IMG/VR virus record: IMGVR_UViG_2563366824_000007
DNA length: 43,405 nucleotides
From: a virus
Taxonomy: Duplodnaviria > Heunggongvirae > Uroviricota > Caudoviricetes
Strand: one strand, 5' to 3'
Both the position numbers and the translations under genes were made by a program. Below are positions 12,071 through 39,149 of the stretch, in pieces. A model generated the notes under the pieces. That model saw only the letters and a program-made list of their open reading frames with translations, did no database searches and had not been told where the DNA came from. Positions within the stretch are counted from its first letter, which is position 1, and every line of letters starts with the position of its first letter.

Positions 12071-12748
12071 TTATCTAAAGTTACTTATTACCCGATACCT
12101 TATGCTTTGGTTACTCGCATCAAGTACTTCGAATTTAGCCCCTTTATAGCCAATTGTTTTAGACTCCGCGAGATCATACTCAACATCGTTGTTGAAGGCC
12201 GGGCGTGCTGTATTCGATGAAAATTCACGATATCCAATGTTGATTTTGTTTCCGACCCTTCCGTTGTAAAGCAGAGCTTGCTGGAAAGATGAATCACCAC
12301 TGATATTCAGAGTAACCTTTTCGATAGGCATGTTAGTTTCACAGTTGGTAACACCGAAAACTGTTATTACACATAAGGCATTCTTTTTCTTTTCTACCAT
12401 GATGCCCTGCCACATATCGGCAAGGGCTGCCTTTTCCACATTGGCTGAATCAGCACCGTTTGTGAGAAAGTAATAATCAGCCTTGTTATCCTCACCAACC
12501 TTTTTCAGCATCCCCGGAGTGATCGTATACGCCCAGGAAATTCTCGCAGGAGCATTAACCTTCAGACCTTCAAACCTCTGTGACACCCCCTGCTTAATCA
12601 TTGAATCACCGACATAAGCTGTATTAATGCTTCCTACAGGAGGTTCACTATAATTTTCTGTTTTTGGTAAATAATTGTACTTCGGAGAGGTACATCCCCC
12701 GAGTAAAAGAGCCATGCCGACAACTGAATAAATTGTTAAGACTTTCAT
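12071..12748 (-). CDS. Lipoprotein of unknown function (moron in tail module)
   Basis: Start at ATG 12748 gives MKVLTIYSVVGMALLLGGC..., a signal peptide with lipobox LLGGC; AT-rich relative to neighbouring tail genes; has its own terminator. Confidence 0.7.
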   Translation of the reverse strand: MKVLTIYSVVGMALLLGGCTSPKYNYLPKTENYSEPPVGSINTAYVGDSMIKQGVSQRFEGLKVNAPARISWAYTITPGMLKKVGEDNKADYYFLTNGADSANVEKAALADMWQGIMVEKKKNALCVITVFGVTNCETNMPIEKVTLNISGDSSFQQALLYNGRVGNKINIGYREFSSNTARPAFNNDVEYDLAESKTIGYKGAKFEVLDASNQSIRYRVISNFR

Positions 12749-32807: not shown

Positions 32808-33617
32808 TCAATGAACGGTATCGAGCAGCTTTAACAGCTCAGGGAATCGGGATTCGAAGAAGTGTGGCTGCGTCTCGCGCGGATTTGCGGGACTGGTGAT
32901 GTTCTTGCCGAACATGCAGCCTTTCGCTGTCAGCGACCAGAATTTTTTGATGTTGTTAATCGCGGTACGGCTGTATCGTTCGCGCTGCTCGACGATCCCC
33001 AGCTTCACCATCTGGTGATATGCCTGATTAGCCGTCAGGCGGATACCATACTGTTTCAACAGTGCACTCAGTGACAGTGTCGGGCGACTTGAGCCATCGT
33101 GTGCATCAGCAGGAGCATCAATGGCATAGCGCGGTGCCAGATTCGGTAAGCCAACAGCCTCCTGGAGTTTCTGACAGGCACCAAGCACTGATGAGTTAGA
33201 CAGGTTTAATTCCCGGCGCATAAAGTCCAGCAGGATCACACCAGCCTGCATCTTGTCAGCAGCCTGCCCGGATAATTTTTCCGGTGCGCTGGTTACCATA
33301 TCGAAAGTACGGATTACCTTCAGATGGAATGACGGGCTGATCCACATTGCATAGGCATACACCAGTTCTTTGCAGACATACGTCCCCTGGTTATTTCCGC
33401 CATTAATGACGCTAACTGGTTGATTTTGTTCCAGAGGCGGAATTCCACCCTCGGTGAAAAGTTGTTCAATCAATTCACAGGTTTGCTTATTGGAGATCCA
33501 GTATTTCGGGCGGTTTTTTTGTTCTCCCCCGGCTGCCCTGTGCAGATCGTTCAGGCTGTAACGCCCATAAGCATCACGACGAACTTCAATACCATCAATG
33601 ACCATCAGATTATTCAT
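32808..33617 (-). CDS. KilA-N domain protein
   Basis: 269 aa; N-terminal region typical of KilA-N DNA-binding domains in lambdoid early operons. Confidence 0.6.
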   Translation of the reverse strand: MNNLMVIDGIEVRRDAYGRYSLNDLHRAAGGEQKNRPKYWISNKQTCELIEQLFTEGGIPPLEQNQPVSVINGGNNQGTYVCKELVYAYAMWISPSFHLKVIRTFDMVTSAPEKLSGQAADKMQAGVILLDFMRRELNLSNSSVLGACQKLQEAVGLPNLAPRYAIDAPADAHDGSSRPTLSLSALLKQYGIRLTANQAYHQMVKLGIVEQRERYSRTAINNIKKFWSLTAKGCMFGKNITSPANPRETQPHFFESRFPELLKLLDTVH

Positions 33618-33636
33618 ACTTCGTTTCTCCTCTTAA

Positions 33637-34026
33637 TCAGGCGGCTGCACCCGCCGTTTTCTCGTACTTACTGATAGTTATCTCGACCTTCCCTTCCGGG
33701 ATAACCGGTCCCCACTCCACCAGCATTCTTTTCACCTGGCTGTCGTCTTCCCACACACCCGCGTGGGTCAGGGCGTCAAACAGCGCCTTGTTATAGTTGT
33801 CCAGATCGCGGATCCGGTTATCCGGAGGAAACAACACGATCTCCACTGAAGCAGGTGCCGACGTTGGTTTTGGCAGACGACGTAACTGCTCAACTATTGC
33901 TGCACACGCCGCGCTCTGGAATTTTCGCCCCGCCGCGCTTATCAGGCTCTTACCTGCAAACGCCCCTTTGTTGGGGTGTCGCCAGTACGTGTTCACGCTG
34001 GGCGGAAAAGGCAGTATCAGCTTCAT
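33637..34026 (-). CDS. rusA: Holliday junction resolvase RusA
   Basis: 129 aa with RusA hallmarks (PPSVNTYWRH ... RDLDNYNKALFDAL ... DDSQV). Confidence 0.85.
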   Translation of the reverse strand: MKLILPFPPSVNTYWRHPNKGAFAGKSLISAAGRKFQSAACAAIVEQLRRLPKPTSAPASVEIVLFPPDNRIRDLDNYNKALFDALTHAGVWEDDSQVKRMLVEWGPVIPEGKVEITISKYEKTAGAAA

Positions 34027-34349
34027 ACTTTCAGGCCTCTCTCATGTAACCAGTGAGCTGCACGCAGCCTGGCGTTCACCTCACCGGCAAGCAGTGCGCG
34101 GATAATCCCGGCCGCCTCGCTGTCGTCGTCCTTCACTGCGGTATAAAGCGTGATACCCCGGGCCACACCACGCTTTATCGTGATGACGCCTTTTTTCTCC
34201 AGAGCTCGAAGATGCTCCACCGCTGCATTCACTGAACGGTATCCCAGCATGGTTGCCACCTCCTGATTGGTTGGCGGGAAGCCACGTTCTTTCTGATAAG
34301 AAATCAGCATATCCAGCACCTGCTGCTGGCATTGAGTTAACGTCGTCAT
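34023..34349 (-). CDS. LexA-like winged-helix DNA-binding protein
   Basis: Resembles the LexA N-terminal domain (QQQVLDMLISYQKERGFPPTNQEVATMLGYRS...); ATG 34349 preferred over track GTG 34382. Confidence 0.55.
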   Translation of the reverse strand: MTTLTQCQQQVLDMLISYQKERGFPPTNQEVATMLGYRSVNAAVEHLRALEKKGVITIKRGVARGITLYTAVKDDDSEAAGIIRALLAGEVNARLRAAHWLHERGLKV

Positions 34350-34837
34350 TAAGCCCCCACGTAATTCCCTGACAGATACCACTCATCACCCGATGCAGCG
34401 CGCTTGCTGCTTTTCCGTAAGCACCGCTCACGACGCGCAAGAAAATTGTTTCGCTCTTGCTGGGAGTGGCTTTCACGGAATGCCGCCATCCACACCGTTG
34501 CAGCACGACGGTATAAGCCCCTTGACTCCAGTTCTTCAGCCTGGCGGGTCAGGCACAAAATCACCCGGAGATCGTTAGTGCCGACATAGAAATTGCGCAC
34601 AGGTCTGGTTTCACGAACTGGTTGTGGTTCCGGCTCCTGCGCTCTCTCAGTCAGGCGCGGGAAATGTCTGCGTGTATCTCCTTCACAACGGTGAGCCACA
34701 CGCCCACTCTGACGTAACTTGCTTGCTGACTGCAGAACGCGCTGCCGTGAGTAACCTGCAAAAGCATCCGCAACGTCTCCGGAAGTACACCCCGGATGGG
34801 CTTCAATGAATTTCTGAACGTCATTTAACAGACTCAT
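34349..34837 (-). CDS. Hypothetical early protein, possibly DNA-binding
   Basis: Basic Arg-rich ORF translationally coupled in the early operon; ATG 34837 preferred over track GTG 34843. Confidence 0.5.
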   Translation of the reverse strand: MSLLNDVQKFIEAHPGCTSGDVADAFAGYSRQRVLQSASKLRQSGRVAHRCEGDTRRHFPRLTERAQEPEPQPVRETRPVRNFYVGTNDLRVILCLTRQAEELESRGLYRRAATVWMAAFRESHSQQERNNFLARRERCLRKSSKRAASGDEWYLSGNYVGA

Positions 34838-34839
34838 GA

Positions 34840-35781
34840 TCACCCCCTGAATCCTGCCGGGATCTGGCTGTAGTCCACGTTGTCGTAACTGGATTTGAAG
34901 TACGGGTCTTCGCGTTTTTCGGTGTACGTGCTGACGGACGGTGATAAGCGCAGGGAAAGCTCATCCCATTTTTCCCGCAACTTCGACGGGCTGAGCACGT
35001 TACGGCACCAGAACGGATCGCGGTTGACGCGGCTGTACATCTCGCAGATTTGTTTGTGAGTACGACCATCCTGCACACACATCAGGCGAATTTCGTTTGC
35101 CCAGGCTGTCCAGTTCGGTTCTTTGGGACGAACCACCTCGCCGTCACATTCGGCGGCCTGCTCGTACAGGGCGATGATTTTTTTCCAGAGCCACTGTGCG
35201 CAGGTCAAATCATCCTGCGTTCCCCACTGGCGCTTTTTAGGGCTGAATACAACCGCATCAGGATGGCGAGTTAAAAACTCCTGTTCAGCCGTCTGCGTGT
35301 CCGGTTGCGAAGCGTCCGGACGAGAAGTATTTTTATCTGACGGATCATGTTTTGATTTTACTGACGGATCCCCGCCAGATTCTGACGGGTGAAAACCCGC
35401 TTTTTTGCCAGATTTCGACGCATCAAATTTTGACGGGTCAGATTTTGATGCGTCAGATTTTGACGGGTCAGAATCTGACAGTTGAGAAAATGCCGCTGCC
35501 TGAAGCTTCGCAACGTTAAGCTGATAAACATTCGACGCATTGCGGTTACCCTGGCGACGCGCCTTACGCGTTAACCAGCCTTCTGCTTCCAGCCGTGCGA
35601 TAGCCGTTCTGACGGTACTCATCCCCGCGCCAATCTGGCGGGCAATGGTTTCAATTGATGGCCAGCACACACCTTCGTCATTACTGAAATCAGCCAGGCG
35701 GGCCATAATTGCCACGCTGGATAACTTCATGCCTGATGCAGCGCAACCATCCCATACATAGCCGGTTAATTTAGTGCTCAT
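34840..35781 (-). CDS. Replication initiation protein (lambda O-like organiser)
   Basis: N-terminal HTH region, central repetitive linker (DPSKSDASKSDPSKFDASKS) encoded by iteron-like DNA repeats, conserved C-terminal domain. Confidence 0.75.
   Translation of the reverse strand: MSTKLTGYVWDGCAASGMKLSSVAIMARLADFSNDEGVCWPSIETIARQIGAGMSTVRTAIARLEAEGWLTRKARRQGNRNASNVYQLNVAKLQAAAFSQLSDSDPSKSDASKSDPSKFDASKSGKKAGFHPSESGGDPSVKSKHDPSDKNTSRPDASQPDTQTAEQEFLTRHPDAVVFSPKKRQWGTQDDLTCAQWLWKKIIALYEQAAECDGEVVRPKEPNWTAWANEIRLMCVQDGRTHKQICEMYSRVNRDPFWCRNVLSPSKLREKWDELSLRLSPSVSTYTEKREDPYFKSSYDNVDYSQIPAGFRG
35351..35482. repeat. Iteron array (putative replication origin) inside the O-like gene
   Basis: About 7 tandem ~15-bp units of consensus CAGATTTTGACGGGT, e.g. 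35375..35390, 35424..35438, 35439..35453, 35454..35468. Confidence 0.7.
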
Positions 35782-35790
35782 GACCGACCT

Positions 35791-36129
35791 CTATTTCCCT
35801 GAATTTACGACGAAACTGTTCGAGCGGGCTGAAGCACTCATGCTCATAGCCTTCGCGGAGGTAGATAACTCGTTGTGTTTCCGGCTCCCAACGAATGACT
35901 CTGACGGGCACTCCGTAGTGATCTTTGAACCAGCGGTTAACTTGTCGCAAAGGACTGTCTCCTTCTGCCGGTTGAAATCACCCACAGCCCACTCAGCAAA
36001 GCTGTGGGTTACAATTTCCCTGTCACCTGGTACATTAACTGCATAGCAATACTCCACCTTCGCTTTTCCACCCGGTACAGGAAGCGCAATCAGTTGCGAG
36101 CGACGGTAGTGTGTTGTTAAACTGTTCAT
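35791..36129 (-). CDS. Hypothetical early protein
   Basis: 112-aa ORF whose ATG overlaps the upstream gene stop (ATGA), ending 10 nt before the O-like gene. Confidence 0.5.
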
Positions 36130-36734
36130 GCGTTAGTTTCTCCACAGTCACGACACGCCACGGCGCCCGGAGCTGCACACTCGCGGGCGTCATTACTTTC
36201 TGAAATGCAAAAGATTTTGTAGACCAGTGCTGCATGCTCCTGCAGCTTCGAAATTGAGAGATACAGCTCGTCGTTAATTGCTGTCTTCTCATGCGGTTCC
36301 ACCACACCGTCTTCGATTGCCGAACGAATCTGTCTGGAATAACTGCCAATCTGTTCAATGACTTCCAGCAGGCGCTGGTTAATATCCGCGTTGTCCACAT
36401 CCTCGACGTCAGGAAGAGACACAAAGACGCCATTTGCAGACTGCGCCACAGCGTCAGCAATGAAGTGAGTTCCACCAGCACGTTGCAAAATCATTGCCCA
36501 TCCCAGCGGGAAAATCTGATCGCCATCGGCACGAAGGCGGTTAAATAATGCGTTTTCTGTTACATCCAGCCAGTCAGCTGCTTCAGCGTAACCACCCGGC
36601 AACGCTGCGATAGTTTTTCTGACAGCTTTCACGTACCACTCAGGCTGTTTTTCTACTTTCCAGTGATGCTTACCCACGGTTAGCCTCATCGTTCTGTGGT
36701 TTCTGTTAATCGATTTATCCATTAGATTTTTCAT
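36126..36734 (-). CDS. Early regulatory-region protein at the cII/YdaT position (function uncertain)
   Basis: Track ORF 36126..36791 starts at GTG; in-frame ATGs at 36734 and 36722; no clear ribosome-binding site; follows the cro-like gene. Confidence 0.45.
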
Positions 36735-36915
36735 AAAGCTCAGGTTTAAATGGCAACCGTCCGCAAGTTCTATATGCAGCTTCTGCTGCACGTCCTTTTG
36801 GAATTAACTGGCCCGGACGGTTTCGCCACTGATAAACGGCTTCAGTTGTTATGCCGAAAAAAGCAGCAACTTTCTCAATACTGCCGAAGTAGCTTTCGAT
36901 ATCGTCAGTTGTCAT
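36715..36915 (-). CDS. Cro-like HTH regulator (YdaS/Cro family)
   Basis: 66 aa with HTH (VAAFFGITTEAVYQWRNR); GGAGGG ribosome-binding site; divergent from cI. Confidence 0.75.
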   Translation of the reverse strand: MTTDDIESYFGSIEKVAAFFGITTEAVYQWRNRPGQLIPKGRAAEAAYRTCGRLPFKPELYEKSNG

Positions 36916-36925
36916 ACGCCCTCCA

Positions 36926-36990
36926 AACTAAGTTTTATTAGATGCTAATTACAAATCTATCTTTGGTCAATAAAAACTAAGATTACTTAG
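36926..36990. promoter_or_regulatory. OR-like operator/promoter region between cro and cI
   Basis: Palindromes ATTAGatgCTAAT (36937..36949) and CTAAGattaCTTAG (36977..36990) plus an AACTAAG half-site; minus-strand TTGACC -17- TAGCAT promoter overlaps the first palindrome. Confidence 0.6.
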
Positions 36991-37012
36991 CAATTCAAGA
37001 AATGGTGCTCCT

Positions 37013-37639
37013 ATGGAAACGGTTGGTCAGCGTATAAAAGCTCTGAGAAGAGTTACCGGAACGTCCCAGAAAGAATTGGGTAAATTTTGTGGAGTAAGCG
37101 ACGTTGCTGTGGGGTACTGGGAGAAAGACATCAATACTCCTGGTGGGGAGGCACTTTCGAAATTAGCGAAGTTCTTCAATACGTCAATAGATTACATTCT
37201 TTATGGTGCTGAGTTTGAAGGCAAACTCGTCACAAACATGCGCAGAGTTCCTGTAATATCGTGGGTTCAGGCTGGGCAGTTTACTGAGTGCAGGGCAGCA
37301 GAAGTGTTTAGTGAAGTGGACAAGTGGGTAGATACATCATTAAAGATTGGTGATAACTCATTTGCATTAGAGGTTAAAGGTGACTCCATGACTAACCCTA
37401 ATGGCCTCCCAACAATACCAGAAGGCGCAACAGTGATTGTAGATCCAGATGCAGAACCTCGTCATGGAAAAATAGTCATCGCTCGACTTGATGGAACAAA
37501 CGAAGCTACAGTAAAAAAATTAGTCATCGATGGCCCTCAAAAGTTTTTAGTGCCATTAAATCCTCGGTATCCCAACATCCCTATCAATGGTAATTGCCTT
37601 ATCATTGGTGTAGTCAAAGGAGTTCAATACGAACTCTAA
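37013..37639 (+). CDS. CI-like repressor (HTH plus S24 LexA-type autopeptidase domain)
   Basis: 208 aa; N-terminal HTH (QKELGKFCGVSDVAVGYWE), C-terminal peptidase region with GDSM serine motif and a downstream Lys. Confidence 0.88.
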   Translation: METVGQRIKALRRVTGTSQKELGKFCGVSDVAVGYWEKDINTPGGEALSKLAKFFNTSIDYILYGAEFEGKLVTNMRRVPVISWVQAGQFTECRAAEVFSEVDKWVDTSLKIGDNSFALEVKGDSMTNPNGLPTIPEGATVIVDPDAEPRHGKIVIARLDGTNEATVKKLVIDGPQKFLVPLNPRYPNIPINGNCLIIGVVKGVQYEL

Positions 37640-37653
37640 GACCTCTCTTCTCT

Positions 37654-37721
37654 AACTAAGGCACCGAACTAAGAAAAGTTTGGTGTTTTCTCTTGCCATA
37701 ATAACTAAGTTAAGTTAGATT
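37654..37721 (+). promoter_or_regulatory. OL/PL-like operator-promoter downstream of cI
   Basis: Three further AACTAAG repeats (37654, 37667, 37703) and a rightward TTGCCA -17- TAGATT promoter (37693..37721) with half-sites in the spacer. Confidence 0.5.
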
Positions 37722-37845
37722 TTATATCAAAGATAACGAACAGGCAGGACGCCCACGAAGTAGCCGCCTGGGGCATATGACGTCCAGGATGATTCGTTGA
37801 GTCATGTTGTGCCACCAGGCACTCATGTTAAAGCAGGTGTATGAA

Positions 37846-38121
37846 ATGAAAGTCCAGATTTTAAACAATAACTGTGAAGTCGTTTGGTCATACGACATAG
37901 CCGCCCCTGTAGATCAGAGCGGCGATAGCTGGACCAATGGGAAACATCAGATTATGGCTGGAGTTGTGTTCTCTTTACGCCGTGCTTTGGAACAGGCTGA
38001 AGTATTTCCATCAGACCCTGAATGGAAATGGCCTTTTTCTATTTGTCCAAATTCGGAGAGCACATTTCAGAAAATTGGTCAGAAAGTCGCACTCGAAGAG
38101 CATCAGCCAACTGTTTCCTGA
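37846..38121 (+). CDS. Hypothetical protein, first ORF downstream of cI
   Basis: 91-aa ORF from ATG 37846 with AGGTG ribosome-binding site (track start 37804 lacks one); AT-rich; no recognised family. Confidence 0.5.
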   Translation: MKVQILNNNCEVVWSYDIAAPVDQSGDSWTNGKHQIMAGVVFSLRRALEQAEVFPSDPEWKWPFSICPNSESTFQKIGQKVALEEHQPTVS

Positions 38122-38284
38122 TTTTTTCAGGTAACTCGTCGGCATCGCAGAAACAACAACGCTCGATCATGTTGAAAGCCGATTCGTAGAACTGTTTCTG
38201 CTGAGTGTCGCTGAGACAGGAAAAGAGCGACGTTACGATGATTTTATTAATTGCATTATCAAGTTCTTTTTCATCAAAAGTCAT
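38039..38284 (-). CDS. Hypothetical acidic protein, convergent with and overlapping the previous ORF
   Basis: 81-aa ORF with ATG and AAGGA ribosome-binding site; 3' end overlaps the plus-strand ORF by 83 nt; Cys pair CCFC; AT-rich. Confidence 0.45.
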   Translation of the reverse strand: MTFDEKELDNAINKIIVTSLFSCLSDTQQKQFYESAFNMIERCCFCDADELPEKIRKQLADALRVRLSDQFSEMCSPNLDK

Positions 38285-38539
38285 TTGATTTTCCTTTTAT
38301 GTATACGGGCTTAAAAGGATACCACCGAGCCTGAAGTGGTGAAAAGACAGGCACATAACAGCTAAGTATTTTCAACCAAAGAGAATCCTTAGCGTTGTGG
38401 TGAATGCGGCTCAGCGCACGCGGGTTAAGGTTGAGGCTGACAGTCGACCTTCTGTGGATACCCACCCGCCTGGTGTGCAACCTTCGCCAGGCACCGGGAG
38501 GCACCCGGCACCACAACTTTATGCTGTGTGTAGTCTTGG

Positions 38540-38721: not shown

Positions 38722-39084
38722 ATGGCTAGCGAACGCAGTACTGATGTGCAGGCATTTATCGGGGAGCTGGACGGCGGCGTATTTGAAACCAAAATCGGCG
38801 CAGTTCTCAGTGAAGTCGCTTCCGGTGTGATGAACACGAAAACCAAAGGTAAGGTCTCGCTCAACCTGGAAATCGAACCGTTTGATGAGAACCGAGTGAA
38901 AATCAAACACAAACTCTCATATGTTCGCCCGACTAACCGCGGGAAAATTTCCGAAGAAGACACCACCGAAACGCCGATGTATGTCAATCGCGGTGGTCGC
39001 CTGACTATTCTGCAGGAAGACCAGGGACAGTTACTGACTCTTGCCGGTGAACCTGACGGAAAACTCCGCGCAGCAGGTCGTTAA
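38722..39084 (+). CDS. yfdP: YfdP-like early protein
   Basis: 120 aa from ATG 38722 with GAGGAG ribosome-binding site; the track ORF's 5' extension from 38404 is Arg/Cys-rich and covers the structured leader. Confidence 0.7.
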   Translation: MASERSTDVQAFIGELDGGVFETKIGAVLSEVASGVMNTKTKGKVSLNLEIEPFDENRVKIKHKLSYVRPTNRGKISEEDTTETPMYVNRGGRLTILQEDQGQLLTLAGEPDGKLRAAGR

Positions 39085-39149
39085 TATCGTTTTTAATTAA
39101 CTGATTATTTATCTCATCACTGAATATCTTTATATAGTGAGGACTTATT

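Follow-up and report, generated by a model that had tools for sequence, protein, structure and literature searches.

Does the tandem repeat inside a phage replication initiator gene act as DNA, as part of an origin of replication, or does it only encode a repetitive peptide linker? The question is raised by a minus-strand ORF at 34840–35781 of the window, by which we mean the whole 43,405-nt stretch of Caudoviricetes DNA that was analyzed (IMG/VR record IMGVR_UViG_2563366824_000007). Its 313-aa product matches PHROG 391 (replication initiation O-like) end to end with an E value of 8.5e-136; PHROG 277 also matches, and an NCBIfam search gave no family-level match. The gene is 98–99% identical to genes of Shigella phages SfIV and SfII and of several E. 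coli temperate phages, where it is annotated as replication protein O or primosomal protein. It lies in a lambdoid early-right operon: a cI-like repressor gene (37013–37639, plus strand) and then a pR-like promoter are followed on the minus strand by cro-like and cII-like (Phage_CP76) genes, a small ORF, the initiator gene, and genes encoding PerC-like (34349–34843), LexA_DNA_bind-like (34023–34382), and RusA (33637–34026) proteins. A first-pass annotation of the sequence had likened the repeat to lambda, where origin iterons sit inside gene O. Comparison with related initiator genes bears out that likeness, with corrections to copy number, unit, and boundaries, and we put at roughly 0.8 the probability that the array supplies the iterons of a lambda-type replication origin located within the gene of its own initiator.

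Codons 1–99 of the gene (35485–35781, minus strand) encode an N-terminal winged-helix domain, the presumed reader of the iterons, with a Pfam HTH_36 match at residues 23–70 (E = 4e-11). Its AlphaFold2 (AF2) model contains four helices and a beta-hairpin wing at pLDDT 70–91, and the nearest solved folds are dimeric winged-helix DNA binders of the MarR/ArsR type, a weak match (E = 2e-3). PDB sequence searches also returned weak MarR matches for this domain and no match for the C-terminal tail. We did not detect a lambda O-type N-domain, since Pfam gave only HTH_36, GntR, and MarR-like winged helices and BLASTP found no N-terminal similarity to lambda O. Codons 165–280 (34942–35288, minus strand) encode a C-terminal domain, predicted by AF2 to be helical, whose residues ~167–278 share homology with lambda O and phi80 gp15. 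BLASTP gave E values of 5e-25 against lambda O, over residues 70–277 with the conserved part at 175–277, and 7e-25 against phi80 gp15; tblastn against lambda, 21, H-19B, and others gave an E value of 1e-17. Between the two domains, pLDDT falls below 50 at residues 103–164, in a model of only moderate overall confidence (pTM 0.36); the linker there is predicted to be disordered, and its codons are those of the repeats and of the elements that follow them.

Tandem Repeats Finder placed the repeat at 35409–35472, with a period of 15, 4.3 copies, 81% matches, and the consensus CAGATTTTGACGGGT; a super-period of 30 bp gives a marginally closer fit than 15 bp. It is the top-scoring repeat of the 43-kb window, with scores of 86 and 100 where all others reach at most 38. 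Read on the gene strand, the unit consists of an 11-bp palindromic core, TCARAWTYTGR, and a variable 4-nt spacer. The core occurs at five sites (nine strand matches) against 0.57 expected, all within 35375–35478 and nowhere else in the window, and none of 100 shuffled windows reached nine strand matches. When one mismatch is allowed there are six cores, five of them contiguous at 15-bp spacing and the sixth 33 bp further on, together spanning 35375–35478, which corresponds to codons 102–136 of the initiator gene. All lie on the minus strand: iteron 1 at 35468–35478 (TCAGATTCTGA, gene strand), iterons 2 and 3 at 35453–35463 and 35438–35448 (both TCAAAATCTGA), iteron 4 at 35423–35433 (TCAAAATTTGA), iteron 5 at 35408–35418 (TCGAAATCTGG, with one mismatch to the core), and iteron 6 at 35375–35385 (TCAGAATCTGG), which adjoins an AT-rich block and is part of the near-perfect 17-bp palindrome CCGTCAGAATCTGGCGG. 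The first-pass annotation had described about seven copies of a ~15-bp unit at 35351–35482. Its unit agrees with the Tandem Repeats Finder consensus and its interval does contain the array, but there are six full cores, five contiguous plus one, and 35351–35374 holds a related half-site box, GATCCGTCAG, in place of a full unit. The array lies inside coding sequence and yields a repetitive peptide, as had been stated: the gene encodes ..SDSDPSKSDASKSDPSKFDASKSG.. on the minus strand. A further core-like match, which would have been the seventh, lies at 35345–35355 (TCAAAACATGA, two mismatches), but its place within the AT-rich block and its lack of sequence conservation among relatives led us to reject it as an iteron.

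Iterons 5 and 6 are separated by an A6/T4 spacer at 35389–35409 (minus strand; GGCAAAAAAGCGGGTTTTCAC), which overlaps iteron 5 by 2 nt and could possibly bend the DNA. A step of 33 bp between the last contiguous unit and the final one is found in five of the seven diverged genes of the window's own type (group A, described below) and in all five relatives of a sister type, group A'; the group A exceptions are a Klebsiella phage, with 48 bp, and phiP27, which differs. A promoter and terminator scan picked out a terminator-like hairpin between iterons 5 and 6 at 35386–35399, on the plus strand and antisense to the gene, formed by CGGGTGAAAACCCG and then CTTTTTTG. A terminator role was set aside, the stem not being kept in relatives while the A-tract/T-tract alone is, and the segment is treated as spacer. 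An Rfam scan of 33000–38500 gave no structured RNA match.

Directly downstream of the iterons, in gene direction, lies the AT-rich block (35323–35370, minus strand), a candidate DNA-unwinding element. It includes the least stable 40-mer of the gene, 35323–35362, which has a GC content of 28% and a dG of −45.6 compared with a window mean of −55.4 (SD 4.8), about 2 SD below. Two GATCCGTCAG boxes occupy 35361–35370 and 35337–35346; each looks like a half-iteron preceded by GATC, and they are kept at the nucleotide level in 10–11 of 11 diverged relatives from nine genera. The GATC sites of the block are conserved across nine genera; group A has two of them and group A' three, spaced 18 bp apart (the relatives listed for this observation are loci L008, L010, L011, L012, and L016). 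In many relatives there is a dam gene at a distance of two to three genes downstream; the window and SfIV are without one there (PMC3851460). The conserved GATC sites may reflect Dam/SeqA control of the origin. The block is followed by a conserved right arm at 35299–35327 (minus strand; CTTCTCGTCCGGACGCTTCGCAACCGGAC) that contains the inverted repeat GTCCGG-N10-CCGGAC. In groups A, A', and B and in loci L013 and L018, this DNA comes directly after the repeats specific to each type, and L020 has a degenerate version of it; at the DNA level, the right-arm sequence is common to initiator genes with unrelated N-domains. Judged from these comparisons, the functional unit would reach beyond the coordinates first assigned to the array, to about 35299–35478.

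A repeat with a period of exactly five codons, in a region that AF2 predicts to be disordered, could have arisen as a by-product of a flexible low-complexity Ser/Asp/Lys linker built of DPSKS pentapeptides, expanding and contracting by slippage and having no function as DNA. Among close relatives the copy number ranges from 1 to ~9, always in frame, as that explanation would have it. What speaks against it is the pattern of substitution. We compared seven diverged group A genes: those of the window, Citrobacter phage phiNP, Klebsiella phage 1 LV-2017, Yersinia phage YeP1, phiP27, a Pantoea prophage (L007), and an uncultured Enterobacteriaceae metagenome assembly (L014). The copies found in an IMG/VR scan were only 98–100% identical and of no use for divergence tests. 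Four-fold degenerate sites in the N-domain show just 23–48% pairwise identity among the seven genes, and synonymous sites are therefore saturated. Despite this saturation, third codon positions within the core carry 1.3–1.65 bits, equal to positions 1 and 2, and the 4-nt spacer carries 0.4–1.0 bits; these values come from 46 units in seven genes, and units within and between genomes are statistically non-independent through concerted evolution and shared ancestry. The first core codon of 45 in-frame units is TCA in 36, CCA in five, TCG in three, and GCA in one, and TCA makes up 17% of the Ser codons elsewhere in the same genes. The encoded pentapeptides change (PSKSD, ASESD, TSKCD, APNFD, PSKFE, and others) while the palindromic core is kept, and one phiP27 unit retains the DNA core in a different reading frame, where it encodes TLQNL. 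A conserved core, a free spacer, and no three-base periodicity form the pattern predicted for a protein-binding DNA site and not for a peptide repeat. By this comparative evidence the repeat is constrained as DNA and not as peptide; in group A a peptide repeat is also produced, because the period is a multiple of three.

Group A' supplies a parallel observation. In L012 and L016 (Edwardsiella), at gene nt ~345–490, the half-site spacer flips between CCCC and GGGG with the YCAA-N3-TTGA core kept, and the flip switches the peptide between DPP/DPS and EGL/EGS, clear evidence that DNA symmetry, not the peptide, is maintained there. Sister initiator families moreover have arrays with periods of 22 and 23 bp, which makes peptide repeats impossible in them. 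Together with the third-position conservation and the out-of-frame unit, these arrays leave the linker by-product highly improbable in our judgment.

If the N-domain reads the iterons, a change of N-domain should be accompanied by a change of array. A scan taking one genome per species yielded 26 loci with the shared C-domain, which is fused to many different N-domains, each type having its own tandem array at codons ~96–175. Array periods across the types are 15, 21, 22, 23, and 24 bp, and most cores are dyad-symmetric. Group A, the window type, has the 15-bp unit TCTGACCCGTCAAAA, and its sister group A' a 15-bp unit with the core YCAA-N3-TTGA and CCCC/GGGG flanks. The mEp460-like group B has a 23-bp unit containing ..GGTCAAAATGA.., L018 a 22-bp unit (CCGCAGAATCGCGG..), L020 and L023 units of 24 bp, L026, which has a lambda-like N-domain, a 23-bp unit (TGTCACT..AGTGACA), and phi80 and L029 a 21-bp unit (CGGGAA..TTCCCG). 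The architecture of group A' is the same as that of group A, namely n contiguous 15-bp units, the 33-bp step, a last unit, and then GATCCGTCA. The two groups differ in the start of the recognition helix, TTVSAAI in group A' versus STVRTAI in group A, and in the core, YCAA-N3-TTGA versus TCAGA-N-TCTGA. The phiP27 N-domain is just 63% identical to that of the window gene, yet both STVRTAI and the core TCAGAATCTGA are kept. Iteron sequence thus co-varies with the type of initiator N-domain, both across the N-domain types and between groups A and A'. In phiNP, YeP1, and phiP27, the group A N-domain and its array are joined to other C-domains. The N-domain and array would be expected, on this comparative basis, to form a specificity module, a DNA-binding domain together with its cognate sites.

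Position and layout place the array alongside origins that are already annotated. The lambda RefSeq record gives four ori iterons at 39034–39118, corresponding to O codons 117–145, and the phi80 record gives four gp15 binding sites at codons 122–147 of gene 15. Residues 102–150 of the window protein face residues ~110–157 of lambda O in the BLASTP alignment, and the agreement of codon positions and alignment makes the array positionally equivalent to the annotated lambda and phi80 origins. Like the window gene, lambda O combines a homologous C-domain with dyad-symmetric iterons at equivalent codons in mid-gene, and in both, in the direction of transcription, the iterons precede an A-rich tract (CACAAAAGACACTATTACAAAAGAAAAAAGAAAAGATTATTCGTCAGAGAATTCTGG.. 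in lambda) and then a conserved right arm (PMC7466680). The two differ in several respects. The lambda N-domain is unrelated in sequence to the HTH_36 winged helix of the window protein; the window cores are 11 bp long at 15-bp phasing, whereas lambda iterons are 18–19 bp long at 20–24-bp spacing; lambda has four iterons and the window six sites, one set apart by 33 bp; and only in the window does the AT-rich block hold a pair of conserved half-site boxes with GATC, and only there is a P-like gene missing after the initiator. Gene 15 of phi80 shares the C-domain family and has palindromic sites, GGGAA..TTCCC, inside the gene. Its right arm is also similar, with AAAAGATCTTCGTCCG in phi80 compared with AGATCTTCTTGTCCGG in group A', and phi80 AAAAGATCTTCGTCCGAGAATTCTG.. 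resembles the group A' version AGATCTTCTTGTCCGGA. Unlike the window, phi80 has a different N-domain and iteron sequence, a 21-bp period, and the P-like gene 14 downstream.

More distant systems follow the same principle. In lambda, P22, and phage L alike, the initiator gene contains iterons of its own (bioRxiv 10.1101/2020.10.05.325894; PMC7466680), and gene 18 of phage L contains six imprecise 11-bp repeats (bioRxiv 10.1101/2020.10.05.325894). The P22 and phage L gene 18 products are distantly related ori-binding proteins with their own repeats in the coding region, like the window gene in principle but different in protein and repeat sequence. Origins with six iterons occur in the Stx phages 933W and P27, so that iteron number differs among related phages, and the extra iterons lengthen the O linker by residues (PMC7466680). 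The copy-number variants of the window type are analogous to this variation, but the six-iteron Stx-phage origins have lambda-type N-domains and lambda-type iterons, and the window gene shares just its last ~76 nt with some Stx-phage O genes. The arrangement described here is a textbook one, the known principle of lambda, phi80, P22, and L, in a subtype for which we found no origin description: the SfIV genome paper (PMC3851460) makes no mention of an origin, and a literature search, including SfV together with iterons, found no account of this subtype.

By analogy with the lambda paradigm (PMC7466680; bioRxiv 10.1101/2020.10.05.325894), winged-helix dimers of the N-domain would bind the six 11-bp palindromic cores and assemble an O-some-like complex, which would destabilize the adjoining AT-rich block at 35323–35370, and the lambda-O-like C-domain would then serve to load the host helicase, with transcription of the early-right operon passing through the site. 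Sites bound by a protein might also serve some purpose other than initiation, such as autoregulation or an early-right roadblock, copy control by handcuffing, or binding of another factor (the PerC-like protein, the LexA-DBD-like protein, or a host protein). Plasmid iterons do serve control functions as well, the sites are in transcribed DNA downstream of the pR-like promoter, and neighboring genes encode DNA-binding proteins. Against such uses, the array follows the initiator N-domain, and the neighboring genes are different ones in phiNP, YeP1, and phiP27; the layout of iterons, AT-rich block, and right arm, together with its position, matches the lambda and phi80 origins. There are also no DnaA boxes in the region of the kind that accompany the iterons of a plasmid-type origin: TTWTNCACA occurs just twice in the window, at 12432 and 28797, neither of them close to the initiator gene. 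We regard a non-origin function as quite improbable, and an origin as the better account of these sites.

The right arm bears on a further possibility, that the repeats are chiefly the sign of a recombination hot spot, or of a boundary between modules, in mosaic lambdoid genomes. The 97% homology of the window to mEp460_4F5 starts at the right arm and the 83% homology to phiNP ends there, with both breakpoints at 35303–35336, where the joint sequence is conserved. Because these homology limits fall in it, the right arm is the joint of the specificity half and the C-domain half of the gene. The breakpoints are, however, in the conserved right arm and not in the iteron array, and a recombination marker would leave both the palindromic cores and their co-variation with the N-domain unexplained. 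As the main role of the repeats this seems to us a very remote prospect. As a secondary property, a role in recombination is compatible with the origin reading, and the segment at 35299–35327 may serve at once as right arm of the origin and as a linker for recombination.

In practical terms, the origin reading places a probable origin for a very common prophage family of E. coli, Shigella, and Salmonella (one protein cluster has >5000 member sequences) and precisely defines a testable site by its core, spacing, AT-rich block, and right arm. The comparison also shows that many unrelated N-domain types obey the lambda rule: the specificity half, consisting of N-domain and iterons, can be swapped while the C-domain half stays common. 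Uses include annotation, the building of compatible replicons, and the prediction of replication incompatibility between prophages; the understanding of how such origins work stays unchanged.

Initiator homologs range from 274 to 337 aa, and the whole difference in length lies in the linker. Three short forms were followed at the DNA level, one with a single core (L115) and two with two cores (L114 and L116); in all three, the retained cores run in frame straight into the GATC/AT-rich block, the outcome expected of recombination between iterons. Deletion variants in other genomes always keep iteron 6 or a hybrid of iteron 6. The two-core form is widespread in Salmonella, with 151 database blocks, which implies either that most of the array is dispensable for something or that those prophages are defective. 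In lambda, the two iterons next to the AT-rich region are described as sufficient for unwinding and in vitro replication (Dodson 1986 and Wickner & McKenney 1987, cited in PMC7466680), and for that reason the short variants do not refute the origin model. The variants do show that the length of the array is under no tight constraint, and some of the short-form prophages may be defective.

Genes of the mEp460 type and related genes have a second array, of 12-bp A-rich repeats (ACAGAGAATACA, three to four copies), after their 23-bp iterons. It is present in L002 (nt 466–503 of the gene) and also in L013, L015, L017, L019, L021, and L022, and occupies the position of the GATC/AT-rich block of the window type. 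In mEp460-type genes this A-rich array is probably the unwinding element.

Helicase loading is where the window type may depart from lambda. The genes that come after the initiator gene encode the PerC-like, LexA_DNA_bind, and RusA proteins, and none of them is P-, DnaC-, or DnaB-like; phiP27, with a different C-domain, has DnaC- and DnaB-like genes. With no loader encoded by the phage, the conserved initiator tail, ..SQIPxGFRG, might recruit the host helicase directly. In a fuller version of this scheme, suggested by the GATCCGTCAG half-iterons with their Dam sites, the initiator would contact the unwinding element directly, Dam/SeqA would gate firing, and the tail would bring in the host helicase, so that the class would differ somewhat from lambda; we consider this combination speculative and rather unlikely. 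The last ~25 codons of the gene (34840–34915), which encode ..DNVDYSQIPAGFRG, match at 96–97% identity the 3′ ends of the O genes of many Stx phages, SfV, and mEp460, genes that differ elsewhere. Residues P308, G310, F311, and R312 are invariant across the initiator family. The tail may resemble the C terminus of E. coli DnaT, a likeness that could be the source of the "primosomal protein I" annotations.
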